Shown piece by piece: positions 7,154-64,000 of a DNA stretch of 64,000 nucleotides. The notes under the pieces are model-generated. The model worked only from the letters and a program-made list of their open reading frames with translations. It did no database searches and was not told the origin of the DNA. Within the stretch, counting starts at the first letter, position 1, and each line of letters begins with the position of its first letter. Source of the DNA: Clostridia bacterium (lineage in GTDB: Bacteria; Bacillota; Clostridia; Oscillospirales; CAG-272); the NCBI GenBank assembly GCA_017464565.1, contig JAFTZH010000029.1:9767-73766 (forward strand), in the 5' to 3' direction. Position numbers and translations under genes: made by a program.

Positions 7154-7250
7154 AATTACCGGAAAGGCATACCTTCGGCGCTTTTCCGGTATGCCTGTAA
7201 AATGTTGAATTTAAATCACGGAAAAATTCTGAAATAAGGAGAAAATACAT

Positions 7251-9056
7251 ATGAAGGTTAAGCTTTCACAGTATATAGCGGATTTTTTGGTGGAGCGCGG
7301 AATTACCGATTGCTTTATGGTAACGGGGGGAGGCGCTATGCACCTCGACGACGCTCTCGGACACAAGGAAGGGCTCAAATGTATTTTTAATCATCACGAG
7401 CAGGCTTGCTCTATCGCCGCGGAGGCGTATACGAGAATGACGGGAAAGCTTGCTGCTGTCTGCGTTACGAGCGGTCCCGGCGGAACGAACGCCATTACGG
7501 GAGTTATGGGCGGCTGGCTCGACTCGATACCTATGTTCGTGCTTTCGGGTCAGGTCAAAAGAGAGACTACCACGCAGTCTTGTCCCGAGCTTGGACTCCG
7601 TCAGCTCGGAGACCAGGAGTTCGATATAATAAATTCGGTATCCAATATGACGAAGTACGCGGCGATGATAATGGATCCCAAGGATATCGCTTATCATCTT
7701 GAAAAGGCGTATTATCTCGCGCTTGAGGGAAGGGGCGGCCCCGTGTGGCTCGATATCCCGCTTGACGTTCAGGGTGCGCAGATAGAAACAGACGAGCTTA
7801 AGCACTTTTCTCCGGAGCAGGAATGTCCGTGGAAGCTTCCCGAGCTAAAAAAGGATACCGTCAAAGATATACTTGATAAGATAAGCAGCGCAAAAGCGCC
7901 TCTTCTTCTCGTCGGAACGGGAGTAAGACTTTCGGGCGCGGGAGAAAAACTTCTTGAGCTTATCGACAAGCTGAAGATACCGGTAGTTACCGCTTGGAAC
8001 GCGAACGACGCTGTTGCGGCTGACAATCCCTATTTTGCGGGAATGCCCGGAACCGTCGGAACGCGCCCCGGAAACTTCGCGGTGCAGAAATGCGACCTGC
8101 TTCTGAGCATAGGCTGCCGTCTTAATATCCGTATGATAGGATATACCCATTACGACTTCGCCAAAAACGCGTATAAAATAATAGTGGATATCGACCCCCG
8201 CGAGCTTATAAAGCCTACGGTCCGTGCCGATATGCCCGTCAACGCCGACGCGGCAGAGCTTATTGACGCTATGCTTGCGGAGGAGTATACGCCCAATCCG
8301 AAGCACGAGAGCTTCGTTGCGTGGTGCAGAGACCTCGTGAAGAGATATCCCGCCGCCTGCGAGAGCTATCGAAACGCGGAGGGACTTATAAATCCGTATA
8401 TTTTCATAGACACTCTCTTTGACTGCCTTGACAGCAGCGACAGAATAATTACGGGTAACGGAAGTGCCTGCGTTATAACCTTCCAGGTAGCGAAGATAAA
8501 GCAGGGACAGCGTATGTTTACCAATTCGGGCTGCGCGGCAATGGGTTACGGTCTTCCCGCGGCTCTCGGCGTAGCGGTTTCCGATAACAGCCGCCGTACC
8601 GTATGTATCGACGGCGACGGAAGCGTTATGATGAATCTTCAGGAGCTTGCCACGATAGCTTACAACAGACTTAACGTCAAGCTTATCATTCTAAATAATA
8701 ACGGATATCTCTCTATCCGTCAGACGCAGACCAATCTTTTCAAGCCTCCGTTTATCGGAATAGACGGCGAGAGCGGTATCTGCTTCCCTGATTTCGGAAA
8801 GCTTGCGGATGCGTTCGGGCTTCCTTATTATAAGACCGACAGCGAGGCCACCGCATCCTATATACTCGACGAATTTCTCAATTCCGACGGACCCGCGATA
8901 TGCGAGGTGGTCGTAGATCCCAAGCAGAATTTCGCTCCGAAATCGTCCTCGAAGGTGCTTCCCGACGGAAGAATAGTTTCGCCCTCTATCAACGATATGG
9001 CACCCTTCCTTGACAGAGACGAGTTTGAAAAGATAGTAGACGCGCCCCTTGATTAA
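7251..9056 (+). CDS. Thiamine diphosphate-dependent enzyme (acetolactate synthase-like, YerE-type)
   Basis: HHEQAC, TSGPGGTN, GDGSVMMN...NN ThDP motif; RBS AAGGAG. Confidence 0.85.
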   Translation: MKVKLSQYIADFLVERGITDCFMVTGGGAMHLDDALGHKEGLKCIFNHHEQACSIAAEAYTRMTGKLAAVCVTSGPGGTNAITGVMGGWLDSIPMFVLSGQVKRETTTQSCPELGLRQLGDQEFDIINSVSNMTKYAAMIMDPKDIAYHLEKAYYLALEGRGGPVWLDIPLDVQGAQIETDELKHFSPEQECPWKLPELKKDTVKDILDKISSAKAPLLLVGTGVRLSGAGEKLLELIDKLKIPVVTAWNANDAVAADNPYFAGMPGTVGTRPGNFAVQKCDLLLSIGCRLNIRMIGYTHYDFAKNAYKIIVDIDPRELIKPTVRADMPVNADAAELIDAMLAEEYTPNPKHESFVAWCRDLVKRYPAACESYRNAEGLINPYIFIDTLFDCLDSSDRIITGNGSACVITFQVAKIKQGQRMFTNSGCAAMGYGLPAALGVAVSDNSRRTVCIDGDGSVMMNLQELATIAYNRLNVKLIILNNNGYLSIRQTQTNLFKPPFIGIDGESGICFPDFGKLADAFGLPYYKTDSEATASYILDEFLNSDGPAICEVVVDPKQNFAPKSSSKVLPDGRIVSPSINDMAPFLDRDEFEKIVDAPLD

Positions 9057-9060
9057 AAAT

Positions 9061-9112
9061 AAAAAGTCCGAAGCGAACGGGGTTGATACCGTTCGCTTCG
9101 GCTTTCTTTTTC
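9061..9112 (+). terminator. Intrinsic terminator
   Basis: CCGAAGCGAACGG / CCGTTCGCTTCGG stem followed by a T-rich tract. Confidence 0.8.
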
Positions 9113-9205
9113 CTCAAACGGAATTTATTTTTTACAGCATAGCGAGAAAATATTGGTATAATAAAATTATTTTTCCGATTTAAGAAAAATATTTTCAAAA
9201 ATCTA

Positions 9206-9234
9206 TTGACAAAGCGAGAACTGCGTTGTATAAT
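9206..9234 (+). promoter_or_regulatory. Consensus sigma-A promoter of recA
   Basis: TTGACA-17-TATAAT, perfect consensus. Confidence 0.85.
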
Positions 9235-9267
9235 GAGACCATATCAAGAAATTTACGGAGAAGGATT

Positions 9268-10383
9268 ATGGCAACTGCAAAGAAAAAAATCGAAATGATT
9301 CCGAGAGACAGCGACAAGGAAGCGAAGAAAAAAGCGCTCAATACCGCGATAGCTCAGCTTGAGCGGGATTTCGGAGCAGGCTCTATAATGAAGCTCGGAG
9401 AACACTCCAGACTTGAGGTACAGGCTGTAAGTACGGGGTCTATCTCACTCGATCTCGCGCTTGGAATAGGCGGTGTTCCGAGAGGAAGAATAATCGAAAT
9501 ATTCGGTCCCGAATCGTCGGGTAAGACAACCGTTGCTTTACATATTATTGCCGAGGTGCAGAAGTCGGGCGGAGAGGCGGCGTTTATCGACGCCGAGCAC
9601 GCGCTCGATCCCGTCTACGCGAAGGCGCTCGGTGTGGATATCAATAATCTTCTCGTTTCACAGCCCGACTGCGGAGAGGACGCGCTCGATATAACCGAGG
9701 CGCTCGTCCGGTCGGGTGCCATCGACGTCGTCGTTATCGACTCGGTCGCGGCTCTCGTTCCCAGACAGGAAATAGACGGGGATATGGGACAGTCGCAGGT
9801 CGGAGTTCAGGCGAGACTTATGTCACAGGCTATGAGAAAGCTTTCTTCGGTTATCGCAAAGAGCAACAGCGTCGTCATATTTATAAATCAGCTTCGTGAG
9901 AAGGTAGGCGTGATGTACGGAAATCCCGAAACCACGCCCGGAGGCCGCGCGCTGAAATTCTACGCTTCGGTAAGAATAGACGTAAGAAAAGCGGATCAGC
10001 TTAAAAACGGAAGCGAGATATACGGAAATCACGTAAGATGCAAGATAGTTAAAAACAAGGTTGCTCCTCCGTTTAAAGTAGCTGAATTCGATATACTTTA
10101 CGGAAAGGGAATATCACGCTCGGGCGAGATAATAGATTATTGTATCGCGCTTGATATTATAAAGAAAAGCGGTTCGTGGTTCTCGTACAACGGCGAGAGA
10201 ATAGGTCAGGGCAAGGAAAACGTGCGCAAGCTCATCGAATCCAATCCCGCGCTCCTTGCCGAGCTTGACGCGAAGATACGCAGTATGAAGGACAACATAC
10301 CTTCGCCCGAGGAGAGCTTTGAGCTTGACGAGGATACCGACGATTTTGATATCAAGACCTTGAAATCGGATATCGAGGAATAA
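9268..10383 (+). CDS. recA: Recombinase RecA
   Basis: GPESSGKTT Walker [32 protein letters not shown]. Confidence 0.98.
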
Positions 10384-11012
10384 TGATAATCGAGATTACT
10401 TCCGTTTCCGCTCGCAGCGGAGGGGCAGAGGTGGAGCTGGGCGTTCGTATATGCAACGGCGAGAACTTTGAAACAAAAAGGATCGTACTGCTTTCGCGCC
10501 GCTATGCCGAGCTTTCCGTTACGAGCGGGAGCGTAAGCCAAGAGTGCTTTGAGGAATTGGAGCTTGAGGCGGAAATTTGCCGCGCGGTAAAGCGGGGAAT
10601 GTATATTCTCGGCTACGGCGCGTCCTCAAAAAAGAATATGGTACTCAAGCTTCGCTCAAAAGGATTTTCAAGGGAGATATCCGAAACCGCGTCGGAATAC
10701 CTATGTGAGCTGGGATATATAAACGAGGAAAAAGACGCCGTTTGCGAGGCGGAGCGGTGTTTAAAAAAATATTGGGGGCGCCGCCGTATCTCCGCGTCTC
10801 TTTACGAAAAAGGATATTCGGACGAGGCAGTACGCGCCGCTTTGGAGTCGCTTCGCGGAGTTGATTTTTCGGAGAGATGCGCCGAGCTTATAAGAAAAAG
10901 ATTTAGGGTTGTTCCCGACGAGCCGCGGGAGCTTCAAAAGCTTATTGCTTCTATGGTTAGATACGGTTATTCCTCGTCTGAGATTAAAGAAGCGTTGAGT
11001 ATGATAAATTGA
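10383..11012 (+). CDS. recX: Regulatory protein RecX
   Basis: Overlaps the recA stop; LRSKGF, LGYINE, GRRRI..L..KG, RYGYS three-helix repeat motifs. Confidence 0.85.
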   Translation: MIIEITSVSARSGGAEVELGVRICNGENFETKRIVLLSRRYAELSVTSGSVSQECFEELELEAEICRAVKRGMYILGYGASSKKNMVLKLRSKGFSREISETASEYLCELGYINEEKDAVCEAERCLKKYWGRRRISASLYEKGYSDEAVRAALESLRGVDFSERCAELIRKRFRVVPDEPRELQKLIASMVRYGYSSSEIKEALSMIN

Positions 11013-11035
11013 ATTACGAATATATTATATTTATA

Positions 11036-11136
11036 TTAAGGGGAGAAACTTTTTTTAAAAAGTTTCTCCCCTTAAACCCCTCTTCAAAACTTTTAAAATT
11101 TGGGTATGGCATTAAAATTTTGTTTTGCTAGCCGCG
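11036..11136. repeat. Palindromic intergenic repeat family, single arm (copy 1)
   Basis: TTAAGGGGAGAAACTTTTT/AAAAAGTTTCTCCCCTTAA hairpin plus an ACCCCTCTTCAAAACTTT tail shared with other copies. Confidence 0.8.
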
Positions 11137-11205
11137 AATACTCATAATCTTTTTTCATAAAAAATAACTTTGAATATTTTGCCACGCTTGGAGAAAAGTG
11201 AGATT

Positions 11206-11441
11206 ATGAGAAAAAAGATTATGCTGATATTCGGAACGCATCCGAGAGGATAGCGGCGGGGGCGCTGTGCTTCGTCGGAACTGCGGAAGAAGGAATTTAC
11301 AATAGTTTTCCCGAGCTATTGAATAATAAATTGGTTTATGATATAATGAATAATACGCCGAATCCTTACGGAGACGGAAGTGTGTGTTCCCGAATTGCTG
11401 ACGTTATAGAGTACGTCAGAATAAAGGCGGAGCATATATAG
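11206..11441 (+). pseudogene. wecB: Internally deleted UDP-N-acetylglucosamine 2-epimerase remnant
   Basis: MRKKIMLIFGTHP (WecB N-terminus) fused with a frameshift to IAAGALCFVGTAEEGIY...NPYGDGSVCSRIADVI (WecB C-terminus). Confidence 0.8.
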
Positions 11442-11535
11442 TCCATTTTTAATCCGAGCTTTGACAGACCTGACTCGGATAAGGCTTTGGTTTATTTTAA
11501 TTACTCGTGAAAAAGGAGTTTGTGCATTCAGGCTT

Positions 11536-12945
11536 ATGATAAGGTTTGGAACAGGCGGCTGGAGAGCCGAGATAGGCGTTGATTTTATTAAATCGAATAT
11601 TGAAAAGGTTACGCAGGGTATCTGCGAGCTGATGAGGGAAGAAGGAAAAACGGACAAGCCCGTAGTGCTGGGACACGACAGAAGATTTCTTTCGGACAGC
11701 GCGGCTATGTGGATAGCCGAGGTGCTCGGAGGAAACGGTATATCGGTACTTTATATAAGCCGAAGCGCCCCGACACCGCTCGTTATGTTTGACGTGAAGG
11801 ATATGGGACTTCACTACGGAATAGAGGTAACGGCAAGCCACAATCCGGCGTCCTATAACGGAATGAAGCTGATAGTTGAGGAGGGAAGGGACGCCTCTGT
11901 TGAGACGACCTCAAAGCTTGAGACTATAATCGACAACGTAACCGACGTCAAGCGTATGCCGTTTGCCGAGGCAATAGAGAAGGGCTTGATACTCGACGTA
12001 AAAAATCCCTTTAACGATTTTATAGATTCGATACTCTCACAGCTTGACATTGATCTGATAAGAAAAGCGGGTCCGAGAATACTTTTCGACCCTATGCACG
12101 GCTCCGGAACTTATCCGCTGACCGTAATTTTGAATACCACGCGCTGTACGCTTGACACCATACATTACAACAAGGACGCTTATTTCGGAGGCGATATGCC
12201 TGCGCCGAACAAGAACGTATTGTGGGACCTTTCCCGTCGTGTATCGAACGGGGGATACGATCTTGGAATTGCGTTTGACGGGGACGGAGACCGGCTTGGA
12301 ATAATCGATCCGTGCGGGGAGTACATAGACGCTAACAGAATATTAGTTATGCTGTATTACTATCTGCACGAGTACCGCGGCTGGAAGGGGCCCGTGGTGC
12401 GTAATTGCGCTACCACGCATATGCTTGATCTCGTTGCCGAATCCTTCGGAGAGAGGTGCTACGAGGTTCCCGTCGGGTTTAAGTATATTTCGGCAAAGAT
12501 AGACGAGGCGGACGCCGTTCTCGGCGGCGAATCCTCGGGAGGGCTTACCGTAAGAGGACATATACACGGAAAGGACTCGGTATATGCGGCTGTGCTTTTC
12601 ATTGAGATGATATGTGCTATCGGAAAAACTCCGAGTGAATTTTGGTGTGAGCTTACCGAAAAATACGGAGTGCACGAAATGGCGGAGGACAATATGCGCT
12701 TTACACTGGAAGAAAAGGAGCGCATTGAGCATATATTGTTTAAGGAAAAGAAGATTCCCGATTTTAGCAGAGGGATAAAAGCTATCAGTTATGAGGACGG
12801 CTGCGTGATAACCTTTGAGGACGGAGCTTTCATTATCTGCCGTTTTTCGGGAACCGAACCCTTGCTTCGTATTTTTGCCGAAGATACCAACGCGGATAAA
12901 GCAAGAAAAATAATATCCCAAATGAAAGAATTTTTGTCGCTTTAA
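11536..12945 (+). CDS. Phosphoglucomutase/phosphomannomutase family protein
   Basis: IRFGTGGWR, TASHNP catalytic Ser, FDGDGDR metal loop, GESSGG, RFSGTEP. Confidence 0.92.
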   Translation: MIRFGTGGWRAEIGVDFIKSNIEKVTQGICELMREEGKTDKPVVLGHDRRFLSDSAAMWIAEVLGGNGISVLYISRSAPTPLVMFDVKDMGLHYGIEVTASHNPASYNGMKLIVEEGRDASVETTSKLETIIDNVTDVKRMPFAEAIEKGLILDVKNPFNDFIDSILSQLDIDLIRKAGPRILFDPMHGSGTYPLTVILNTTRCTLDTIHYNKDAYFGGDMPAPNKNVLWDLSRRVSNGGYDLGIAFDGDGDRLGIIDPCGEYIDANRILVMLYYYLHEYRGWKGPVVRNCATTHMLDLVAESFGERCYEVPVGFKYISAKIDEADAVLGGESSGGLTVRGHIHGKDSVYAAVLFIEMICAIGKTPSEFWCELTEKYGVHEMAEDNMRFTLEEKERIEHILFKEKKIPDFSRGIKAISYEDGCVITFEDGAFIICRFSGTEPLLRIFAEDTNADKARKIISQMKEFLSL

Positions 12946-12969
12946 GTTAGGGGAGTTTTTATGTATGGA

Positions 12970-13013
12970 TTTTTAAGGGGAGAAACTTTTGCAAAAGTTT
13001 CTCCCCTTAAAAA
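12970..13013. repeat. 44-bp perfect palindrome (repeat family copy 2) between convergent genes
   Basis: TTTTTAAGGGGAGAAACTTTTG|CAAAAGTTTCTCCCCTTAAAAA. Confidence 0.85.
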
Positions 13014-13031
13014 ACCTATCCACAAACCAAA

Positions 13032-13985
13032 TTATTTACTATTTATTTCCTTTGCCTGAAGCAATATTATCTCCTCGAGACAATCGGCGTATTCCTGCTC
13101 CGAATATTTTTTTACGACGTAAAGGTGATTTCCGTCGGACGTTTCCTCAAACGAATTACAGCCTGTTTCGGCGTCAAGAGACGCTCTGCCTCTGACCACT
13201 GAATAGCCCGAAAGCTCCTCGTCTCCGACACACGCCATATAAGCGGTAAGCGGGTCCCACGACGGTCTGCCGTTCGGAACGTTATAATCGCAAAGAACCG
13301 CGTAAAGCTTATCGTCGGGATACGTATCCTTAAGTATTCCGCCGCTTATCACGTTATATCCAACTTCCCAGCCAAGCAAGGTTATCGGTACGGGACAAAG
13401 CTCAAGAACCTTGCTCGCCGTGCGGCTCGCCTTGGTGGTTTTGGAGAAATTGAATTCCCGACCGTTCGGAATATCCCAACGGCCGCCCATTATCCATAGC
13501 TTTCTCACCTTTTGTCTGACCAGATCCATTCCGTCAAGCGGCGAAAATTCGTCTGCTTCCGACATCAGAAGGTCGGCAAGAACCTGAGAAAATCCGACCT
13601 CTATTATATCTGCCTTTTCGTCGGAGGCAGCAAGCAGACGGCGGTAAAGCCGCAGCGCGCTCTCGCAGGTATCGTTCTCACGCTTCGCATCTCTGCCCTC
13701 GGCAAGTCTCGCGTGATATTTTCCCTCTCCGCCGTAATCGTAAGCTTCGTGGTCAAGACCTATCGCCACCTCTGGTATCCCCTCGTATTCGGCGAACGCG
13801 CGAAGCGAGGATACCGAATACTCCATAGCCGAGTCAATAGCCATTCCGAGAAGCTTTATTATCTTGTTTTTATGAGCCCACGCAAGAATTCTGATTGCTA
13901 CCGCGTCGTCGCAGTCGGTATGCCAATCGGTTCCGAGAATCACGGGTCTCTCTAAAGGCTTTGCCTTAAGTAACGTATTTTCCAT
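13032..13985 (-). CDS. Nucleoside hydrolase family protein
   Basis: N-terminal TDWHTDCDD Asp cluster, MGG..EFN, SWDPL; RBS AAGGAG. Confidence 0.75.
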   Translation of the reverse strand: MENTLLKAKPLERPVILGTDWHTDCDDAVAIRILAWAHKNKIIKLLGMAIDSAMEYSVSSLRAFAEYEGIPEVAIGLDHEAYDYGGEGKYHARLAEGRDAKRENDTCESALRLYRRLLAASDEKADIIEVGFSQVLADLLMSEADEFSPLDGMDLVRQKVRKLWIMGGRWDIPNGREFNFSKTTKASRTASKVLELCPVPITLLGWEVGYNVISGGILKDTYPDDKLYAVLCDYNVPNGRPSWDPLTAYMACVGDEELSGYSVVRGRASLDAETGCNSFEETSDGNHLYVVKKYSEQEYADCLEEIILLQAKEINSK

Positions 13986-14150
13986 ACAAGGGACTCCTTT
14001 TCAGCGTTTTTCTAATTTTAACATATTTGCGCTAATATTTCAACCGTAACTCCCTTTTTATTTAAAAATTTTTGAAAAAGATAAAAAATAAATAAAACTT
14101 TAACATTTATATGATATAATAAAAAAAATAGTTCAGGGAGGGATCATCGG

Positions 14151-14822
14151 GTGTTTAAAATTTTAGTACTTGAAGACGACGCTATGCTCAACCGCACTAT
14201 GTGTATATTTCTCAACCAAAACGGATATGACACGACCGGCTGTCTCAACGCCGAAGAGGCTTACGACGCTATGTATAAAAGCACTTACGACCTCATAATA
14301 TCGGACATAATGATGCCGAAAATCGACGGCTTTGAATTTGCCGAGACCGTTCGCTCGCTGAGTGAGGATATACCGATACTCTTCGTCAGTGCGAGAGACG
14401 ATATAGCCTCAAAGCAAAAGGGCTTCCGCATAGGAATCGACGATTATATGGTAAAGCCCATTGACCTTGACGAGCTTCTCCTGCGCATCGGCGCCCTTCT
14501 GCGCCGCGCGAATATCGCAAGCGCGAAAAAGCTCACGATAGGCAGCTTCACTATGGACACAGACGAGCACACCGCGTATCTTGACGGGGAGGAGATTCCT
14601 CTGACTATGAGAGAATTCGACCTGCTATTCAAGCTTTTGTCGTACCCCAAAAAGACTTTTACCAGAACTCAGCTTATGAACGAGTTTTGGGACGCCGATA
14701 CCGAATCGGGCACTCGCACCGTTGACGTATATATGACCAAGCTCCGCCAAAAGCTCTCCGCCTGCGATTCTTTTGAGATAGTAACTGTTCACGGTCTTGG
14801 CTATAAGGCGGTGCTCAAATGA
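14151..14822 (+). CDS. OmpR-family response regulator
   Basis: LEDD, DIMMP, DDYMVKP, wHTH RTVDVYMTKLRQKL...VHGLGYK. Confidence 0.93.
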   Translation: MFKILVLEDDAMLNRTMCIFLNQNGYDTTGCLNAEEAYDAMYKSTYDLIISDIMMPKIDGFEFAETVRSLSEDIPILFVSARDDIASKQKGFRIGIDDYMVKPIDLDELLLRIGALLRRANIASAKKLTIGSFTMDTDEHTAYLDGEEIPLTMREFDLLFKLLSYPKKTFTRTQLMNEFWDADTESGTRTVDVYMTKLRQKLSACDSFEIVTVHGLGYKAVLK

Positions 14823-15889
14823 AAAACGAGCGTCAGTTCAGAAAGATACTTCTCGCCCTCAACCATTTTCTGACCTTCTTTATTCTCGTGGCGTTCGTCA
14901 TATCCTGCTGTATGATGCTGTTTCTCTCAACCTTCGCTGACTCGTTGGATCTGGAGCTTACGAACGAAAATCTTAATTCAGCGGCAAAAATAACCTTTTT
15001 GAACGTAATTTTGTTGAGCCTGCTGTTTACGATAATAGACGCGGTGCGCCGCAAGCTTACGGTGAAACGCCCCGTAAAACGTATTACCGAGGCATCTCAA
15101 AAAATCGTTCAAGGAGATTTTTCGATAAGACTTCAGCTTCAGTCTACTGTCTGGAGCGACGACAGCTTCAACGAGATAATCGAGTGCTTCAACAAAATGG
15201 CGGAGGAGCTTTCGAGCGTGGAAACTCTCCGCACCGACTTTATAGCCAACGTATCTCACGAGATGAAAACTCCGCTTGCCGTCATTCAGAACTACGGAAC
15301 GCTGCTTCAGGCTCCCGACCTGTCGGAAGAAAAACGCATAGAATACGCCAAGGCAATAACCGACAGCTCACGCAGACTCGTCGATATGATGACCAATATA
15401 CTGAAGCTGAACCGCTTGGAAAATCAACAGATATATCTGAATACCGAAGAATACGATCTCGGAGAACAGCTCTGTGAATGTCTTTTGCAATACGAAAACG
15501 TATGGGAAGACAAAAATATCGGAATAGAAACCGATATTGAGGACGGATTAACCGTAAAGGCTGACGCCGAGCTTCTGTCTCTCGTATGGAACAACCTTTT
15601 CTCCAACGCCTTCAAATTTACCGAGTCCGGAGGAACGGTATCCCTGTCTCTTGCGTCAGAAGATGAGTTTGCCGTGGTCAAGGTCAGAGACACGGGCTGC
15701 GGAATCTCGTCGGATATAGGCGCTCATATATTTGAGAAATTTTATCAGGGAGACACCTCTCACGCCACCCAGGGAAATGGTCTGGGGCTTGCGCTCGTCA
15801 AGCGGGTAGTCGATATTATGCAAGGTGAGATAGGCGTAGAGAGTACTCTCGGAGAAGGAACTAATTTTACCGTTAAGATAAGGAGGTAA
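14819..15889 (+). CDS. HAMP-domain sensor histidine kinase
   Basis: Two TM segments, NVSHEMKTPL H-box, NAFKFT, DTGCGI, GNGLGL. Confidence 0.93.
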   Translation: MKNERQFRKILLALNHFLTFFILVAFVISCCMMLFLSTFADSLDLELTNENLNSAAKITFLNVILLSLLFTIIDAVRRKLTVKRPVKRITEASQKIVQGDFSIRLQLQSTVWSDDSFNEIIECFNKMAEELSSVETLRTDFIANVSHEMKTPLAVIQNYGTLLQAPDLSEEKRIEYAKAITDSSRRLVDMMTNILKLNRLENQQIYLNTEEYDLGEQLCECLLQYENVWEDKNIGIETDIEDGLTVKADAELLSLVWNNLFSNAFKFTESGGTVSLSLASEDEFAVVKVRDTGCGISSDIGAHIFEKFYQGDTSHATQGNGLGLALVKRVVDIMQGEIGVESTLGEGTNFTVKIRR

Positions 15890-15895
15890 GTCGTA

Positions 15896-16837
15896 ATGGA
15901 CTTTTGGAAAAAGCTTGGAAAAGCGTTGCTTTTCCCCCATATAGCGATTATGATAATCCTCGTTCCGATTTCGATTGCGCTTCTCATCTGCTCTATGGTG
16001 TTCGTCGGAACGGACACGGTGATTTCTTATATATCATACGTTTTAGCGGCGTATACCTTGACGGTCTGGTGCTTCAAAATCCCTTATTTGATTAAATTCT
16101 TTAAAAACTTTAAGAACGAAAATAAATACGTTCAAATTTTACAAAACGACGCGCGGCTTCGCGTCAAAATTTCTCTTTACGGCTCACTGTTATGGAATAC
16201 AGCTTACGCCATATTTCAATTAGGGCTTGGATTTCTTCACTCGACTTTCTGGTACTATTCAATGGCGGGCTATTATATCTGCCTCGCTGTAATGCGATTT
16301 TTCCTCTTGCGGTATACGAGAGTATATAGCCCGGGAGAAAAAATGGAAACCGAACTGAAAAAATACCGCTTGTGCGGCTGGAGTTTCCTGATTATGAACC
16401 TTGCCCTGACGGCTATCATTTTCTTTATGGTATATTGGAACAGAACCTTCGAGCATCATGAGATAACTACTATCACCATGGCGGCGTACACCTTCACCGC
16501 GTTTACCGTGGCAATAGTCAATATAGTAAAATACTCAAAATACAACAGTCCCGTTTTCTCCGCGTCAAAAGCGATAAATCTCGCCGCCGCCTGCGTATCT
16601 ATGCTGACCTTGGAAACCACTATGCTCACTACGTTCGGTGCTGACGGAGACACGAATATGAACCGATGGATGTTAGGCGTTACCGGTATCGTTATATCCG
16701 CATTTATAGTATGTATGGCTATATATATGATAATCAAGGGAAACAAGGAACTTAAAAAGCTGAAGGAAAGTAAAGCAAGGAATAATACCTTTACGGTAAA
16801 AGAACTCAGGGAGAGACTCAATGGAAAACAACAATGA
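15896..16837 (+). CDS. Polytopic membrane protein of unknown function
   Basis: RBS AGGAGG; about 8 hydrophobic segments; co-operonic with the two-component system. Confidence 0.75.
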   Translation: MDFWKKLGKALLFPHIAIMIILVPISIALLICSMVFVGTDTVISYISYVLAAYTLTVWCFKIPYLIKFFKNFKNENKYVQILQNDARLRVKISLYGSLLWNTAYAIFQLGLGFLHSTFWYYSMAGYYICLAVMRFFLLRYTRVYSPGEKMETELKKYRLCGWSFLIMNLALTAIIFFMVYWNRTFEHHEITTITMAAYTFTAFTVAIVNIVKYSKYNSPVFSASKAINLAAACVSMLTLETTMLTTFGADGDTNMNRWMLGVTGIVISAFIVCMAIYMIIKGNKELKKLKESKARNNTFTVKELRERLNGKQQ

Positions 16838-55598: not shown

Positions 55599-58500
55599 TT
55601 ATCTGTTCTGTATTGCGTCTATGGGCTTTTTACGCGCTATTCTCATAACGGGGAGGAAGCTTCCGACGAAGGCTACCAGGATTCCAAGTCCGAGAATGAG
55701 GAGGAATTGGCGTATTCCGATATTGAGAATAGTTATAACGAGTCCGTATTCGGTGCGCAGGAAGTTGTTCAAAAGCTTTACGAGCGTGAAGGTCGCCGCA
55801 GACGAAAGCAGGAAGTTTATCAGAGTAATGATAAGGCTTTCGTTGAAGAAGATGCCGAACACGTCGCTTGACTTTGCTCCGACGGCTCTCAATATACCGA
55901 TTTCGCGCTTCTTGTAGTTTATGGAAACCGATATGAAGTTAAACATCATAAGAGCCGCGAATACGGCGAAGAATATACCGACGTAGAAGAATCCCTGAGC
56001 GAGCGGTACGATAAAGCTGTCCACGCTGTTCAAAATATAGGTTGCTCCGTTGTTGAGAGGATATACCATATTGTCGTCGGTCTCGGTCTCGCTGAAGGAG
56101 ATGATTTTTTCTATCGCTTGATTGTTTCCGAGAGGCATAACGCCGACTGCGAACGAATAGTCTCCCGATTCGGGCTCCTTGAGAGCGCCGTAAACGTAGT
56201 CCGAAACGATACAAGGCAAATAGTGGCCCACGTTCGTGTAATTTTCGTTGGGCATATAATATCCGACTATCGTATATTGGTCGGTATCAAGCTCTACGCT
56301 TATAGGACCGTAAGCCTTCATAGATCCCGTTGAGGGAACGGGAGAGGTAACGTTTTCAGCTTCGTAGACTATCTTCAGAAATTCATTATAATAGGAAGCC
56401 CCCGCCTTTCCGCCGTAAGCGTTTTCTTTGTCTCCCTCGTTGAAGAGATATTCACGGTACAGATTGAGGTATTCTTCGTCGGTTGTGCTAAACTCAGAGG
56501 AGTCCATATTGGGATCCATCTGCGCCTTATGCTGACTGTCAACGTAATTCTTGAAGCTTTCGGGAACGTCGTTTATCGTAAGCTTTGAAAGATAAACGTT
56601 CGTCGGCTTTCCGTTATACGAAAGATCAAATATGGAGATTTCACGGAGCTGTTCTTTTTCGTATTCCTCAAAGATATATCCCGCGTTTTCAAGAGCTTCA
56701 ATCGTGGAAGCCTTTATCCTTGCCGAGCCGTGAGTCTCGTGATCCGGCTCGCGCGCGACTATCACCTCACCATTTTCGAGAGAGGTCTTTTCGCCGTCAA
56801 GCCAGGTTATGTCAACGTAATTCTTCGCCTGCGACAGGGTCGCGACGTGATTGAAGGACCAACCGGAAAGATTGTTAGAGAGATTGAAATAAATGTTGTT
56901 ATTGACTTTTCCGAACGCAACGTCAGATAAGCCGTTAAGGACTTTTCCTGCCGAGACTATCCGTGACAGCATACCCTCGTTTACCGCTACAAGCGCGTCG
57001 TAGCTGTAAAGCAGGGAAGCGTTAAGCTCCTCGCGGTTTATCATATCTACAATCGTCTGCTCGGATGACGAGGCCTGATTTTCGCCGCTTGAGGGCAGAT
57101 ACGACTGATATTTTTCGGCAACCGTAAGCCCCGTGTCGATTATTCCGACTATCTTTACTTTTCTTTCGTTTACGTTGGGATAAGAGGAATTACTGTTTAA
57201 AATTACGGTCTTGCCGATGACGTCCTCAAAGGAGTTTATATCGTCGGGGTTGAGGGATACGTTCTGGCGGGTTGCCGTATCGTAATAGGAAAGACCAGCG
57301 TAATCGAAGTGGTCGTAGATATACTTGGTTATGGCAATCTCGTCGTCGGCAGAGGGAAGAGCGCCGGTAAGGGAGAATCCCGCTCTGTCAAGCGTTTCCT
57401 GCGTTATTTCCGCGTATCCGCTGTATTTACTCATATAGAAGTTGGTTCCGCTGGAGGAATTGAGCTTGGTCGAGTCAACGAGAAGGTTGGAGAAGGTAAA
57501 GCCTCGGTTCCAACTGTCGGTACCGCCGTATACGGGAATTACGTCAAGACCCGTTTCGCTTTCTATTTTGAGAAGGTCGTCGTCGGTGAGGTTCAGGTCG
57601 GTCTCGCTTGTGTAATTTTCGTTATGCGAGCGGTAGGTCTTTGAAAAAGAAGCGAAAGATACCTGGCTGTCGTTTATGGATTGAAGCAGAACGGTAGGTC
57701 TGTCGTACGTGCTTGCGGTGTCGGATATTCCGAACAGAGTGAAGGCAACGAGGCACAAAAAGATTGTAAATACCAGCCTTACGGGCTTTGATTTGAGAGA
57801 GGACGCTCCTATCTTCAAGGAGTTCTTATAGGGCAGGCGGGAACGGATAAATTTGCTGTCCTCGGGAGAGTATTCCTTCAGCTTTATATCCTTGCCGTCG
57901 GTATCCTTGAAGGCGTCCTTTGCGCCGTCGTCTCCGATGCCCGCGGCCTTTTTGAGGTCGGAATTGCTCTTTGCGTCGGTCGAGATAAAGGTATCGTTAT
58001 CCGCCTTCGCGATATATTCGTTTATGAGGGCGAGATCTTCGGGTGTGAGGGAATAACCCTTTTTGATATGAAGCATACCTCCGTCTATCACGCTGACGCC
58101 TTCCGAAACCGAGGTAGGCTGTATCTGCGTCTTGCTTACGTCGGAAAGAATTTTTCCGTCCTTGAGCTCGATGATTCGGTCGGCATACTGCTCGGCAAAA
58201 TCACGGTCGTGCGAAACTATGAGAACGAGCTTGGTGCGGCTGAGCTTTTTGAGGGTGTCAAATACCTGTTTGCCCGTTTTTGAGTCAAGCGCGCCGGTCG
58301 GCTCGTCAGCCATAATTATCTCGGGGGATTTTACGAGCGCGCGGGCGATAGCGACTCTTTGCTTCTGACCGCCGGACAGCTCGTTGGGCTTTCTTGAGCC
58401 GTATCCCGTGAGGTCTACCTCGTCAAGTATTGCCGAAAGCTCTTCGTCCGTGGCTTTCTTGCCCTGAAGCTCCATAGCGAGCGCAATGTTCGCTCCCACG

Positions 58501-58799
58501 GTAAATTCGGGGAGAATATTGTACTCCTGGAATATAAAGCCTATAAAGGTGTTTCGATAGCTGTCAAAATCGGCTTGAGAGAAGTCTTTGCTGGATTTGC
58601 CCTTGATTATAAATTCGCCCGTGTCTGCGGCGTCAAGTCCGCCGAGAACGTTGAGCAGGGTCGATTTACCGCTTCCCGATTTACCGAGAATGAATACCAT
58701 TCCCGTCTCCTGAAATTTCAGGCTTACGTCGTCGAGCGCTTTTACGGGTACGCCTTTCTTGGGGCGATACGTTTTAGATACGTTTCTTATTTCTAACAT
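55599..58799 (-). CDS. Fused ABC ATPase/FtsX-type permease (MacB-like)
   Basis: GKSGSGKST, LSGGQKQR, ADEPTGALD; large extracellular domain; REIGILRAVGA FtsX motif. Confidence 0.9.
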   Translation of the reverse strand: MLEIRNVSKTYRPKKGVPVKALDDVSLKFQETGMVFILGKSGSGKSTLLNVLGGLDAADTGEFIIKGKSSKDFSQADFDSYRNTFIGFIFQEYNILPEFTVGANIALAMELQGKKATDEELSAILDEVDLTGYGSRKPNELSGGQKQRVAIARALVKSPEIIMADEPTGALDSKTGKQVFDTLKKLSRTKLVLIVSHDRDFAEQYADRIIELKDGKILSDVSKTQIQPTSVSEGVSVIDGGMLHIKKGYSLTPEDLALINEYIAKADNDTFISTDAKSNSDLKKAAGIGDDGAKDAFKDTDGKDIKLKEYSPEDSKFIRSRLPYKNSLKIGASSLKSKPVRLVFTIFLCLVAFTLFGISDTASTYDRPTVLLQSINDSQVSFASFSKTYRSHNENYTSETDLNLTDDDLLKIESETGLDVIPVYGGTDSWNRGFTFSNLLVDSTKLNSSSGTNFYMSKYSGYAEITQETLDRAGFSLTGALPSADDEIAITKYIYDHFDYAGLSYYDTATRQNVSLNPDDINSFEDVIGKTVILNSNSSYPNVNERKVKIVGIIDTGLTVAEKYQSYLPSSGENQASSSEQTIVDMINREELNASLLYSYDALVAVNEGMLSRIVSAGKVLNGLSDVAFGKVNNNIYFNLSNNLSGWSFNHVATLSQAKNYVDITWLDGEKTSLENGEVIVAREPDHETHGSARIKASTIEALENAGYIFEEYEKEQLREISIFDLSYNGKPTNVYLSKLTINDVPESFKNYVDSQHKAQMDPNMDSSEFSTTDEEYLNLYREYLFNEGDKENAYGGKAGASYYNEFLKIVYEAENVTSPVPSTGSMKAYGPISVELDTDQYTIVGYYMPNENYTNVGHYLPCIVSDYVYGALKEPESGDYSFAVGVMPLGNNQAIEKIISFSETETDDNMVYPLNNGATYILNSVDSFIVPLAQGFFYVGIFFAVFAALMMFNFISVSINYKKREIGILRAVGAKSSDVFGIFFNESLIITLINFLLSSAATFTLVKLLNNFLRTEYGLVITILNIGIRQFLLILGLGILVAFVGSFLPVMRIARKKPIDAIQNR

Positions 58800-59023
58800 A
58801 ATACCACTCCTTTTTCGTCGTGTGTTTTTTCTCGTTTTGAAGTTATATCAAAGCAAAGGCATAACCAAGTGTTAGGAAAGACTTTGCGGTGTCCCGAACT
58901 GCAAACGATTTTATGGCAATATTATAACAGATTTTGCTTTTTCTGTAAATAGGTGCGGAATAAAAAATAAAATCTTAATAAAAAGTTTTCATACGAGAGA
59001 GAACCTTCCGGCTCAAAATTCAA

Positions 59024-59068
59024 ACGGCGGCAGGCTCCGCTTTTGGCGGAGCCTGCCGCCGTCTTCTT
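59024..59068 (-). terminator. Intrinsic terminator after the XRE gene
   Basis: ACGGCGGCAGGCTCCGC / GCGGAGCCTGCCGCCGT perfect stem. Confidence 0.75.
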
Positions 59069-59101
59069 AATTTTCAAGGGAGCTTGAAGGAGAAATTTTC
59101 T

Positions 59102-59719
59102 TTATTTTTCTTCCTTGTTCAGCACCTTTTTTTGCCAGGACTTTTCGTTGCATTTCGGACAGCGCATATATCTTGTTCTGCCCGCGTGCATAGCCCATAA
59201 TACGCTGCTGTATTTCGGAACGTATCTGAATCCGCATTTTTTGCACGAGTAATACCCCGCGCTCTGCTCGATAGTCAGGGCAAACATAATTCCCACGATA
59301 CCAACGGCGAGTCCGAAGGCTATGAGCGTTATTCTCAGCCACGCGGGCATATCTACGAAGGACGCGACGAAGGTAAAACCTAATAAAATGATAACCGACA
59401 ATACGCCTATGAGTATTTCCAAGGACAACAATTTTTTGTCAGCCGTTTCCTTTTGTTTTGCCATTTCAAGTATGTTTTTTTCTAATTTTTCATTATAATC
59501 GTTCACTGTAACTACCTCTCCGCTTAATAAATCGTTTACGCTGATTTTCAGCTCGCCGCACAAATCGAGCATAATGGAGGAATCGGGCATTGATTTACCG
59601 TTTTCCCATTTTGATACCGCTCTGTCGGTAACGTTCAATTTTGCCGCCAGCTGCAATTGCGTCATATTGTTCATTTTTCTGCGCTCGGCAATAAATCTTC
59701 CGATTTTTATCTGGTCCAT
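59102..59719 (-). CDS. XRE-family HTH regulator with two TM helices and a C-terminal Zn ribbon
   Basis: MTQLQLA..LNVTDRAVSKWENG; CKKC...CPKC. Confidence 0.88.
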   Translation of the reverse strand: MDQIKIGRFIAERRKMNNMTQLQLAAKLNVTDRAVSKWENGKSMPDSSIMLDLCGELKISVNDLLSGEVVTVNDYNEKLEKNILEMAKQKETADKKLLSLEILIGVLSVIILLGFTFVASFVDMPAWLRITLIAFGLAVGIVGIMFALTIEQSAGYYSCKKCGFRYVPKYSSVLWAMHAGRTRYMRCPKCNEKSWQKKVLNKEEK

Positions 59720-59895
59720 TTTTTCGCCCCCTTTTCGTGTTCAAGTATATACCCTATTTCCCTGAAAGTCTACACACCGTAGGTTGAGCGGAGAGATATC
59801 AACCGTCGGTAGAGAAGACCGCCTTCTTACATGTCTAACCGATTATACCGTATTTAACGCACAAAGTCAATTGAAATCGTCAAAAAGCAAAAGTA

Positions 59896-59992
59896 TAGGG
59901 AACGGGATAAGGGTTGGGGTAAAATTGCCGTCATTCCGACAATTTAACCCCTTTCCGAAAGTTTCGCAAAGTAATACCCACCTTGCGAGAAA
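59896..59992. repeat. Double-hairpin repeat A (copy 1), candidate oriT-like site
   Basis: Diverged direct repeat of 63781-63880 with both stems preserved. Confidence 0.7.
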
Positions 59993-60024
59993 GAAAAAAG
60001 CAGCCGAAATCGACTGCCAAATCA

Positions 60025-60633
60025 TTATTTCAAATTTTCCGCTTTAAAGGTAGTATAGCCCTCGTAGTAGTAGCTGTGGTCAATTCCTTTCATAAATACC
60101 TGTCTGTCGTTTACCTTGTCTGTCAGGGCATTTTTTAGGAGGTGCTTGATTTCAATATCCTTGATAGGACTTCTTTCCATAGCAAGAAGATAATCCTCTT
60201 TATCCACAAGACTCCAGTCCACAACCATTCCAATTTCGTTTTTTAATATATGGTCAAGCCAAATGCGAGTCGAACGGCCGTTTCCCTCTCTAAAAGGGTG
60301 AGCCACGTTCATTTCAACGTATTTTTCAACGATTTCATCAAACGTACTCTGAGGCATTTTTTCGATATTTTCGAGTGCTGTATGAAGATACATAAGTGGA
60401 GCAAATCTGAAATTGCCTTTTGCGATATTGACAGTGCGAATTTTCCCGGCAAATTCGTATATATCCGAAAAGAGAAAGGCGTGTATTTTAGAAAGAGCAT
60501 CAAACGTTCCCGGATTAAGAGAAGAAAGAAAATTAGTTTCAAAAAGTTCTATTGCGCGTGTTTTGCTTATTCTTTCTTCTTCGCGGGCAAGCTCTGCAGA
60601 ATTGGTTATTCCAAGTTTGTTTTCAAGTGCCAT
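60025..60633 (-). CDS. Fic-domain adenylyltransferase, class III
   Basis: HPFREGNGRSTR active site; C-terminal SYYYEG inhibitory motif. Confidence 0.92.
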   Translation of the reverse strand: MALENKLGITNSAELAREEERISKTRAIELFETNFLSSLNPGTFDALSKIHAFLFSDIYEFAGKIRTVNIAKGNFRFAPLMYLHTALENIEKMPQSTFDEIVEKYVEMNVAHPFREGNGRSTRIWLDHILKNEIGMVVDWSLVDKEDYLLAMERSPIKDIEIKHLLKNALTDKVNDRQVFMKGIDHSYYYEGYTTFKAENLK

Positions 60634-60722
60634 ATTTTCTCCTTTCTCAAATACATATATCCACTGATATTATACCACAAATTATCATTTATTTCAAGTG
60701 TATAATAATAAATAAATCGTTT

Positions 60723-60789
60723 GGGTGTACAAAGGATGTACGCTCCCCTTACTTATTCACTTTTCGTATTACCTATTACTTAAATTCCG
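60723..60789. repeat. Repeat B (copy 1) with the GGGTGTACAA arm-like motif
   Basis: Diverged direct repeat of 63931-64000. Confidence 0.75.
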
Positions 60790-60865
60790 TGCGCCGATTT
60801 AGTGAAAAGTGAAGAGTTAAGAGTGAAAAAGTAAAAATTCCGCACGCTATTGCGCACGGAATTTT

Positions 60866-60909
60866 TGGCACCCGCAACGGGAATCGAACCCATAACTACC
60901 CCTTAGGAG
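60866..60909 (-). mobile_element. 3' half of tRNA-Arg(CCT): attachment-site remnant
   Basis: Minus strand CTCCTAA GGGGT AGTT ATGGG TTCGATT CCCGT TGCGGGTG CCA (anticodon loop, T arm, acceptor, CCA); 5' half absent; hairpin downstream at 60834-60865. Confidence 0.85.
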
Positions 60910-61065
60910 TTTTTACAAATGTTTGAGGCTATCTGTGAATGGGGGATTTTTGTGTGAAATAAGCGTAAAATCCACCTAAAAGGAAGATTTTACGCTTGGT
61001 AGGTTGTGTGGTTGTTGATGATTTTTATGACGCTCAATACTTGCGGGTGTACAAAAGGTGGATAT

Positions 61066-62112
61066 TCAGAGGTTTCTTGTGTAGAAAGTAGTCCTGCCCT
61101 TTCCGTGTTTTTCAACAATGCCGTTGCGCACTAATTTTTTAAGTGAGCTTTCCACAGAACTTGCGCTTATGGAAGGACACAAAGAGGCGATATCTGCTTT
61201 TTTAAATTTACCAATCCTTGTTTCAACAGCTTTTACAACTATATTCATAGCGGAATCTTTATCGCTTACAATCTCCATTCGCTCTTCAAAATCACGATAT
61301 GCGGAAATAATTGTACCAAGCAAATACTTAACGAAGGGAGTGGGAGCATCGTTACCCTCGTGCCACTCTGCTTGCGATAACTCCAAGGTATCGTAATAAA
61401 GATTTTTATTCTTTGCGATTTTTGCTTCCAAAGAGATATATTTGCCGACCATATATCCGCTACGGTACAAGAGAAGCGTTGTGAGCAGTCGGCTCATTCT
61501 TCCATTTCCGTCAAGGAAGGGGTGAATGCAAAGAAAATCATGAATAAAGATTGGAATGAGAATAAGTGGATCAACCTCGCATTCCGCAATAGCACGGTTA
61601 AACTCGTCACAAAGCTCCGATATCATATCGAGTGTTTCATACGGCGCAGGCGGTGTAAACAGGGTAAACTGCTTTCCTTCACTATCTGTAGCGCTGATAT
61701 AATTCTGCACGTTTTTGAATTTTCCACCAATGTCTTTTACCGAGTGACTATATAAAATTTTATGCAACTGTAAAAGATAATTCGGTGTCAAAGGAATATA
61801 TTCAAAGCTTTCATGAATAACGGCAAGCGCATCACGATATCCGGCGATTTCTTGCTCGTCACGATTTTTTGGTGTTGTTTTTTCCGATATGAGCTGCTTT
61901 AGACGAGTGTTAGTCGTGCGGATTCCTTCAATCTCGTTGGAACTTTCGGTACTTTGTACCTTTGCGATTTCCACAAGCTTATCAAGGGTTTCGGGTTTTT
62001 GCCTAAGATAAAGCACTTGCTTGCCCTTCATCTCGTGAATGATGGCAACGTATCCCATCATTTCGGAATCCCACTTCATATTTTTTAATGCAGTATAATT
62101 AAATTTTCTCAT
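61066..62112 (-). CDS. Fic-domain protein, class II, with a C-terminal winged-helix domain
   Basis: HPFLDGNGRMSR; N-terminal SNEIEG inhibitory motif; C-terminal L..LV..GIVEK.G.GR.T.Y. Confidence 0.9.
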   Translation of the reverse strand: MRKFNYTALKNMKWDSEMMGYVAIIHEMKGKQVLYLRQKPETLDKLVEIAKVQSTESSNEIEGIRTTNTRLKQLISEKTTPKNRDEQEIAGYRDALAVIHESFEYIPLTPNYLLQLHKILYSHSVKDIGGKFKNVQNYISATDSEGKQFTLFTPPAPYETLDMISELCDEFNRAIAECEVDPLILIPIFIHDFLCIHPFLDGNGRMSRLLTTLLLYRSGYMVGKYISLEAKIAKNKNLYYDTLELSQAEWHEGNDAPTPFVKYLLGTIISAYRDFEERMEIVSDKDSAMNIVVKAVETRIGKFKKADIASLCPSISASSVESSLKKLVRNGIVEKHGKGRTTFYTRNL

Positions 62113-62427
62113 ATAAGCTCCTAACGAATCGACTTTTCTCGTAAATTATATCATGTTTTGCGAGATTAGTCAATATATTATGAGATGAAATTTAAGTTTT
62201 CTCGTAAATATTGTGTGTTTTTGTGAGAATTTTATTCAAGATAGGAGCTTTAGAAGCGTTTGAGTCTATCTGCGTTTGGGTGTACAATTTGTGGACAAAG
62301 TCACTTCGTTCTTGCAATATCCTATAAAATTATATCACAAAAGACAATTGTATCAATGTGTTTTAATTTTTATTACTACAGAAAGCAGAAAAACATAGCA
62401 ATAAAATTGTCATCAACACAATCCTAC

Positions 62428-63471
62428 TTAATTGCTTTGTTGTGTGTTTTCAAGATTAATTATTATGCTTTCACTACCAAAACGCTCACCATCATTTATA
62501 ACTAATTTTAAATCATTCACATAAACATCTTTTCCTATTTCAAAAAACAAATCATATTCTTTTGTGATTGTAGCACCTTGATTTATATCGTAATAGCCAT
62601 TTTGATATCGCTTAGCTATGTCTACTTGATGAATTTTAACATTATCTTTTAACAACCATACGTCTGTTCCATTTGAAGTAAATGTTTCCGAGCTTCCATT
62701 ATATACACGAAGTTTAATAATAAGAAATTGATTATCAGTAGTAAAGTGATATAATGTACCTTTGATTTCTGTTGTTTTCTCGAAGTCTAAAACTTTAAAT
62801 TCTATACCATTACTCCATCGTCCTGTTTCATTCATTTTAATTTCTTTTTCATTTACCGACTGCTCGATTTTAGTAATTGCATTAGAGCCATCTCGATTGT
62901 ATAGATAATACTCTTTTCCTACAGAAAAAATACTCCAAGAGATACAAAGAGTATATTGTTTATTATCTTCAAGTTTATGGGGTACATAGAATTCAATATC
63001 ATAAGTCTTTGTTGCGCCTGCTATAATATCATCTCCAAAATCAAATATAAAGCCACTACTTCCAGAAAACGCATGAACATCGTATAGTTCTTCTGTATCC
63101 ATAGCCTTTAAATAAAAGTCAGAAGAAGATATTTCAAAATCTTGTTTCGAATTATTCTTACAGGTCAAATTAACTGTTAATTTCACCAAGCCTTGATAAT
63201 CTACATTTGTCCCTTCATACAACTGACCTGTAATGTTGTTTACTATAATATCGATGTTATCGCAACTTAAAGTTTCACCGATATAAACGGGAGTATCTAC
63301 TTCTTCATCTTTCCTATTTTCACTGTTTCCTATAATGCTAGTAATGCTAGACACCATAATTACTGCAAGTGATACGAAAATAACAATAAAAATTATTATT
63401 GCTTTGGGCGTTAAAGGCTTTTGGCTTTGATTATAATTTTGATTATAATTCTGATTGTAATTGTAGTTCAT
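62428..63471 (-). CDS. Membrane-anchored protein with two DUF4352-like domains and N-terminal NYNQ repeats
   Basis: NYNQ repeats, single TM, repeated N.S...F...AGAT....I.F domain; AT-rich; RBS GGAGG. Confidence 0.7.
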   Translation of the reverse strand: MNYNYNQNYNQNYNQSQKPLTPKAIIIFIVIFVSLAVIMVSSITSIIGNSENRKDEEVDTPVYIGETLSCDNIDIIVNNITGQLYEGTNVDYQGLVKLTVNLTCKNNSKQDFEISSSDFYLKAMDTEELYDVHAFSGSSGFIFDFGDDIIAGATKTYDIEFYVPHKLEDNKQYTLCISWSIFSVGKEYYLYNRDGSNAITKIEQSVNEKEIKMNETGRWSNGIEFKVLDFEKTTEIKGTLYHFTTDNQFLIIKLRVYNGSSETFTSNGTDVWLLKDNVKIHQVDIAKRYQNGYYDINQGATITKEYDLFFEIGKDVYVNDLKLVINDGERFGSESIIINLENTQQSN

Positions 63472-63484
63472 TTTCTCCTCCAAA

Positions 63485-63739
63485 AATAAAAAAGTGCGTC
63501 AACCGAAGTCAACGCACCGAAAAACGCAAACCCCGATTGTCGCCAAACAAATCGAATATAGAAATAGGGATAAAAAATCCTTCGTATTCTAATCCTTGGA
63601 ATTTGCGCTTTTACCAAATTCATTTAGATTAAAATACGCAGAAAAAAGGTATAGTATCCCTAAAAGAAAAAATACCCCCTACTTTATTATTCGATTTGTT
63701 TGGCATAATTACTATATCACACTAACTTACCTTTGTCAA
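63485..63739 (-). promoter_or_regulatory. Promoter plus long structured leader ending in a terminator
   Basis: TTGACA-17-TATAGT (63739-63711); 17-bp IR 63542-63558/63688-63704; UUCG-loop hairpin with U-tract at 63485-63517. Confidence 0.65.
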
Positions 63740-63780
63740 GCGAAATCATAAAAAATAGCAAACATTATAAAACTCAATTT

Positions 63781-64000
63781 TAGGGAACAGGATAAAAGGT
63801 GGGGCTAAATTGCCGTCACTAACAGCAAATTAACCCCACTTCGAGAGTTTCGCGAAGTGGGAACCCCACCTTGCGAGAAATGCAGTTTCAAAACTTGAAA
63901 AACATTAAATTTTCGAAAGCAATTTTTTTCGGGTGTACAAGGGGTGTACGCTCCCATTTACCTATTCACTCTTCACTATTACCTATTGCTTCAAATTCCG
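63781..64000. repeat. Repeat A copy 2 (63781-63880) and repeat B copy 2 (63931-64000)
   Basis: Direct similarity to 59896-59992 and 60723-60789. Confidence 0.75.

Follow-up and report, generated by a model that had tools for sequence, protein, structure and literature searches.

Introduction

Integrative elements are usually found by their integrase, for which they are thought to need several kb. Described here is a locus where small islets that encode no mobility protein are stacked in tandem at a tRNA-Arg(CCT) gene, near the end of a 64,000-nt stretch of contig JAFTZH010000029.1 from a Clostridia bacterium (CAG-272; genome label G000). This stretch is called the window; its coordinates are used throughout, and "window-equivalent" coordinates above 64000 lie on the same contig beyond its end. 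In the reading that we favour, the islets would be double hitchhikers, moved by the tyrosine integrase of a helper and, through an internal module named repeat A, by a helper relaxase of the MOBP type. Such mobilization in trans via A is regarded as only modestly probable, because the helper is missing.

The islets are compared here with the closest described systems. The cis-mobilizable elements (CIMEs) and microCIMEs of streptococci are, like the islets, flanked by attachment (att) sites, without integrase or relaxase, small, and grouped into tandem arrays at a target gene's 3' end (PMC7563491, PMC5704250). CIMEs measure 1.2-13 kb and microCIMEs 130-220 bp (PMC7563491); CIMEs are viewed as decay products moving only in cis, and that streptococcal study could detect them solely beside integrative and conjugative elements (ICEs) or integrative and mobilizable elements (IMEs) (PMC7563491, PMC5704250). 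The islets show two of the features that define a CIME, attL and attR flanks (core duplications and arms) and the lack of recombination or conjugation genes, the remnant in the window being without its far end. They differ from CIMEs in that they have a conserved backbone with a seemingly selected module resembling an origin of transfer (oriT), cross genera, and were seen with no tandem helper. An autonomous relative with the same arm, which could be the ancestor by deletion, was found in none of the genus, family and class draws, whose assemblies are fragmented.

The iOriT elements, or mobilizable genomic islands (MGIs), share with the islets an integrative lifestyle, the absence of relaxase and mating genes, the lack of relation to the helper beyond the oriT, and the carriage of defence genes (bioRxiv 10.64898/2026.01.13.699239); they carry an oriT, to which repeat A would correspond in the islets. 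In that dataset an integrase lies within 2 kb in 92% of the att-delimited islands and the integrative elements exceed 4 kb, with one 2-kb exception, whereas the islets have no integrase, a median span of 2.1 kb and an oriT that is predicted only. Islet units encode no excision or integration of their own, which places them outside IMEs and iOriTs, nor relaxase and mating-pair genes. attC-site clusters without integron-integrases (CALINs) and transposable elements of the miniature inverted-repeat kind (MITEs) are comparable in offering only cis sites to a recombinase acting in trans and in their compact cargo pressed against those sites (PMC11389934); the islets differ from both in having a tRNA core with arm-like repeats, in place of attC sites or terminal inverted repeats, and a putative transfer origin; the repeats observed in the islets are tRNA cores, arms and A. 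No description of the islet family or of its motif was found in the literature searched, where subscription papers were mostly out of reach and supplements not covered; within that reach the family is apparently undescribed.

Organization of the locus

A preliminary description, made from the window alone, had presented the locus as an array of integrase-less cassettes accreted in tandem at tRNA-Arg(CCT). The motif on which it was based, a direct-repeat doublet, lies where it was placed in all four cases (60723, 61045, 62278 and 63931), as do the tRNA half and the repeats A and B. With a pattern derived from these four copies themselves, none of 100 window shuffles gave any match. The motif 10-mer occurs exactly four times in the 1.67-Mb genome, all within 3.2 kb at the locus, against about one expected genome-wide, and the doublet with up to two mismatches is confined to this locus in G000. 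The intact tRNA-Arg(CCT), anticipated 70-80 bp past the window end, was located by ARAGORN on the minus strand of the same contig at window-equivalent 64077-64151 (C5 c73843-73917), ending 77 bp past the edge. None of the genes between it and the contig end is an integrase, as judged by reading the sequences, and the three tyrosine-recombinase matches of G000 are all on other contigs; no integrase was found in the units, and none lies beside the intact tRNA.

All features of the locus are on the minus strand and are followed here in the direction of the tRNA. The intact tRNA is met by the terminator of repeat B copy 2 (63950..64000, on to window-equivalent 64076), a dispersed hairpin repeat. 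Then come an arm-like doublet of left-end type 1b (63931..63949), 180 bp from the tRNA core; repeat A copy 2 (63778..63877; profile E 3e-24), a predicted oriT with two inverted repeats and then a MOBP nick consensus at 63787-63794; a sigma-70-type promoter with a conserved structured 5' leader and a terminator-like hairpin (63483..63739); and the cargo gene for a DUF4352 protein (62428..63483), of 351 aa from a TTG start, the true start possibly being later. The motif copy at 62278 belongs to a shortened arm (62242..62296) with an internal deletion of ~105 bp, which terminates in just 6 bp of anticodon-loop core. It precedes the gene of a 348-aa Fic protein, Fic348 (61066..62112; best PADLOC match SoFic), and a full conserved arm (60910..61063) composed of the motif doublet, a 13-bp hairpin and a core-proximal box, with the motif 145 bp from the core. 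The core and tRNA 3' half (60866..60909) correspond to tRNA-Arg(CCT) positions 32-75. Beyond them lie repeat B copy 1 (60742..60865; terminator and dispersed hairpin repeat), a doublet (60723..60741) at 177 bp from this internal core, the candidate defence gene Fic202 (60025..60633; Fic, 202 aa, best PADLOC match PDC-S04) and repeat A copy 1 (59895..59989), whose nick consensus is mutated. No arm or core follows, and this last unit is a remnant. The cargo genes were correctly named as Fic, Fic and DUF4352-like; the flanking of the tRNA half by the motif on both sides also stands, at 145 and 177 bp from the anticodon core rather than at about 140 bp.

The block of motif, B and tRNA 3' half is duplicated (60720-60909 and 63928-64119, 92% over 193 bp), as is A (78% identity over 100 bp), and the two cores are 3211 bp apart. 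Tandem accretion, as first proposed, is supported. A and B do recur in the same order, as first reported; B, however, is largely a dispersed repeat, its middle part occurring at many unrelated places in the genus, and A, for which no explanation had been offered, is an internal oriT-like module and not an att arm. The B hairpin (60742-60837; 63950-64000 and beyond the window) is non-coding, with many copies across the genus and some in other families, and is possibly MITE-like or akin to repetitive extragenic palindromes. The GC content across the region is 27-42%, compared with ~47% for the genome. Compared with the intact gene, the internal tRNA half shows paired T-stem changes, which suggest that it once served as the working 3' half.

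The junction of arm, 6-bp core and Fic348 was also found in L056, L059 and L078 (L-numbers denote compared loci and G-numbers genomes), each time behind an A, and hence Fic348 is most probably carried along as an additional slot of a composite. The same three loci also keep the direct and inverted repeats, likely operator sites, that surround the Fic348 promoter (62130-62230). The simplest reading of the locus is one 3.2-kb composite (DUF4352 and Fic348) plus an older remnant (Fic202 and a decayed A), brought by two integration events, instead of the four-copy array with one cassette per motif that had been proposed.

A family with a conserved backbone and exchangeable cargo

The arm/core pattern was matched by 26 stretches in genome contigs and 3 in metagenomes, all with a tRNA-Arg core and most with A upstream, and by none in viral contigs; the titled records among these matches are Clostridia genomes, many from animal gut. 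The doublet is present in 10 of 72 genomes of the genus, the new matches examined being all at tRNA-Arg(CCT). In the family 5 of 301 genomes were recovered by the pattern and 11 by the arm sequence (both counts including G000), and in a class-wide draw of 300 only G000 itself matched. An order-wide pattern for repeat A gave 0 matches in 401 and missed G000 as well, and is therefore uninformative. Several family loci stop at contig edges.

Once duplicate loci with identical contigs were removed, A, arm and core were found together in 26 loci (25 from the repeat A tally, and L223), along a backbone of tRNA core, cargo slot, repeat A, cargo slot, conserved arm and core. Core-to-core spans, measured in 22 cases, range from 347 to 6592 bp with a median of 2148 bp. 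The smallest unit (G011, 347 bp) holds no gene, and only L056, which includes an unrelated unit, exceeds 3918 bp. Units are in tandem in L080, L056 and L206.

The arm motifs lie at fixed distances from the core. The motif of the conserved arm is 145-146 bp from the core in the six intact arms measured (6/6); among the left ends, it is at 101/112 bp in type 2 (3/3) and at 177-182 bp in type 1b (four units), a third kind of left end to which the window units belong, with the doublet 177-180 bp from the core. In type-2 and type-1b units the core occupies the tRNA anticodon loop and both arms have direct repeats with a fixed spacing, an arrangement that bears out the earlier notion of an att-like tRNA core with arm motifs. 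In nine loci the chromosomal tRNA breaks off right behind the anticodon loop; next come a conserved arm, with the doublet at its end, and then a whole tRNA-Arg(CCT). In L156 (9433-9728) the cut tRNA-Arg and the left arm are succeeded by a replacement tRNA-Arg(CCT) whose sequence is unrelated, and this shows that the spare tRNA is cargo. Lambda-type attachment sites have arm sites on both sides of the core. By analogy, an excised circle of the tRNA-cutting subtype would have its core flanked by doublets, one per side, as in an integrase attachment site, and we infer that the doublets are integrase arm sites. Separate from the islet family, in L025, L032, L097, L098 and L209 the last 20 tRNA bases are duplicated around other non-coding hairpin insertions immediately behind the tRNA.

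Transfer was appraised with the XerC-like chromosomal protein as a yardstick of host divergence. By this measure the shared segments resemble each other much more closely than the hosts do. G000 and L059, with XerC-like proteins 65% and xerC-like genes ~67% identical, have a Fic348 segment in common at 89.7% identity over 1391 bp; L157 and L160, from two genera with XerC 55% identical, share 1060 bp at 89.8%, and the second unit of L080 shares 878 bp at 95.1% with L225. The slots are exchanged independently, L157 and L160 having slot 1 in common and L057 and L067 slot 2. GC is below that of the flanks in 35 of 38 units. Content is variable among relatives, as the preliminary description would have it: in five relatives that share the downstream genes, the site is occupied differently in each, and empty sites at this tRNA also occur among the relatives. 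That the family is mobile and lacks mobility genes is well supported.

The same data bear on the view that the locus is an old fixed scar, where transformation or transduction is followed by RecA-type exchange of cassettes, with tRNA, A and arm as the homology anchors. The breakpoints of slot shuffling fall in or near A, and cargo abuts the anchors: of the 29 arms with an upstream open reading frame (ORF), 22 have its stop codon no more than 20 bp from the arm motif. Anchors 75-85% identical over 100 bp are, however, poor recombination substrates, and the patchy distribution (the 11 carriers in the family), the empty sites, the tandem copies and the fixed arm spacing point to site-specific integration; we consider the scar improbable.

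Mobility genes and cargo

The Pfam scan covered 70 of the 106 ORFs in or just behind units, flanking and antisense ORFs being set aside, and 15 ORFs added later; no recombinase or relaxase family was matched in either set. A tblastn screen with 39 ORFs taken from integrase matches hit just two loci, L028, where there is a C-terminal scrap, and L029, where the hit is an unrelated element whose arm is different, and no integrase or relaxase scrap was found inside a complete unit. The L028 scrap was not accepted as the cognate enzyme, being nearest to scraps near tRNA-Ser genes. The cargo comprises Fic, GmrSD, a Bpu10I-type restriction pair, methylase and specificity subunits, HNH, DUF4236, zinc-ribbon and SHOCT proteins. 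PADLOC matches were obtained for 13 of 43 cargo proteins; about two thirds had none, and many had no Pfam match.

Repeat A as a predicted transfer origin

Repeat A is ~100 bp long, with sharp borders in 27 aligned copies, and contains two inverted repeats that can form hairpins, with a match to the MOBP nick consensus directly 3'. The published consensus is (C/T)ATCCTG(C/T) with an inverted repeat immediately upstream (PMC3772185). Among 46 copies of A, 27 are followed by arm and core (nick intact in 21), 12 are not (4 intact) and 7 are near a contig edge (6 intact). The nick is therefore kept in 21/27 complete against 4/12 incomplete units (Fisher p 0.012), or 22/28 against 3/11 with L223 re-binned; the window offers the same contrast, the composite having an intact nick and the remnant a mutated one. 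The DNA fold z values of four copies are -3.0 to -6.0 (-6.0 for copy 2 of the window), and the covariation score was reached by 2 of 500 shuffles. With two hairpins followed by a nick consensus that is intact more often in complete units than in remnants, A is likely a transfer origin.

Some observations pull in the opposite direction. The relatedness of the units violates the independence assumed in the Fisher test; three of the five structure measures are weak (15, 38 and 88 of 500 shuffles), and relatedness among sequences can by itself, in the absence of structure, produce scores above those of shuffles; the nick match, noticed post hoc, has a length of only 8 nt and appears in 1.1% of shuffles; and no A-like site was found within 1.5 kb of 30 relaxase matches in the genus. 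Other functions for A were discarded. It is not an att arm; neither window copy matches a sigma-70 promoter, every window cargo gene having its own promoter-like site. Nothing in Rfam truly matched A, B, the arm or the leader.

The main rival, which stands since neither a helper nor an excised form was found, would have the islets as CIMEs or microCIMEs, decayed IME remnants with att ends whose movement is confined to cis, when an ICE or IME next to them carries them off, A being a left-over oriT. The sizes, att ends, absence of mobility genes and tandem stacking agree with the description of CIMEs and microCIMEs (PMC7563491); decayed units are common, as the 12 A copies without arm and core attest, and a helper could hide where several loci end at contig edges. 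Yet the loci examined contain no tandem ICE or IME with this arm, complete units are free of integrase or relaxase scrap, and the backbone is kept across genera, with the nick retained in complete units, while the cargo turns over. We judge this reading rather unlikely.

Search for a helper

Mobilization in trans has to be weighed against a series of negative results. No integrase-bearing element with these arms was found in the genus, family or class draws, and no helper in viral contigs searched with six patterns (ten motif matches had neither tRNA nor integrase nearby) or in plasmid and phage records. G000 has no PF03432, PF02534 or PF02486 match; the Rep_1 search of this genome was run without a positive control. 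Contigs from a single study's four runs, one of them the possible source of the G000 genome, showed no excision joint, contigs being prone to drop rare forms. Many units are without any left-arm motif, and the same doublet forms an array upstream of a Rep3 initiator in the viral contigs L115, L117 and L118. For the excision or mobilization in trans of the preliminary description, neither helper nor circle junction was found.

Several candidates were set aside. Among the integrases of ten carrier genomes, the chromosomal XerC-like protein alone is widely shared, and the doublet adjoins none of them. In G025 the end of A is matched at a place with a replication-type ORF on one side and a recombinase-like ORF on the other; this match has neither the rest of A nor a tRNA and was treated as chance. 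The joints that were seen in the four runs have short sides and probably come from other organisms, and a lower contig depth over the DUF4352 gene, which AT-richness could explain, was not used.

Rolling-circle origins and transfer origins share nick motifs, and A could accordingly be a rolling-circle or other replication origin of a phage or phage-plasmid helper, with the doublets as initiator-binding iterons and the units as phage satellites. The Rep3-associated array in L115, L117 and L118 lends this some support. The islet doublets, however, come in pairs at fixed distances from the tRNA core and not in an array, viral contigs have no A or arm match apart from a single one that shares only the last 20 bp of A, so that a replication origin appears to us a remote prospect. 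In the viral contigs themselves the array, near 4000 in all three, precedes the Rep3 initiator and a ParA-like gene and is probably a set of phage-plasmid iterons.

Elements with recombinases were noted elsewhere. L053 (G000:C13) holds, at 5400-16409, an element bounded by an integrase, in which there are genes for small membrane proteins and none obviously for a tail, and the L208:12115-17554 island has a 343-aa recombinase-like ORF (no Pfam match), a replication-type ORF and a large serine-recombinase-like ORF.

Proposed route of the islets

In the double-hitchhiker reading, a helper tyrosine integrase would excise the unit and insert it at the anticodon loop of tRNA-Arg(CCT), and a helper MOBP-type relaxase would nick A for conjugative transfer. 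At the window locus an older unit (Fic202 and A) may have integrated and lost its far end; the 3.2-kb composite (DUF4352 and Fic348) would then have entered the same tRNA, pushing the older unit outward. The tRNA-cutting subtype carries a whole spare tRNA; were the ~180 bp that separate its two tRNA 5' halves to be lost, the result would be the many units without left arm, locked in place.

Neighbouring features

The leader of the DUF4352 gene (63483-63739) is ~220 nt long; a sigma-70-type promoter precedes it, and a terminator-like hairpin lies between it and the start codon at its far end. The leader is also present at L160:8210-8455, in L224, L226 and L210, and on G000 contigs C28 and C29, preceding differing accessory genes, and its long covarying stem has 13 of 71 pairs changed on both sides (5 sequences). 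With no Rfam match, it is possibly an undescribed riboswitch or attenuator. At 55599-59719, a helix-turn-helix (HTH) gene and a 1066-aa ATP-binding cassette (ABC) gene are not at this site in five syntenic relatives. An ABC gene with 62% identity sits behind a related unit in L096, and no att end was found behind the window genes; the HTH and ABC genes may be part of the same hotspot.

Implications for gut Clostridia

Tentatively, and with rather less confidence than is given to the mobilization itself, the islets can be seen as an element class without any mobility protein, in which att arms and an oriT are set round two swappable slots, down to 0.35 kb, integrase and relaxase are borrowed in trans, and the target is renewed by a spare tRNA. 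Such elements would carry defence genes from genus to genus among gut Clostridia and escape island finders that are anchored on integrases. Their defined sites (the 145-bp arm, the 100-bp A and the predicted nick) are usable as bait for the helper. As about two thirds of the scanned cargo has no PADLOC match and many proteins no Pfam match, the cargo slots are a source of candidate defence genes. If true, a family that relies solely on cis sites and crosses genera with defence-type cargo (Fic, restriction-modification, GmrSD, HNH) would represent a missed route of gene flow.

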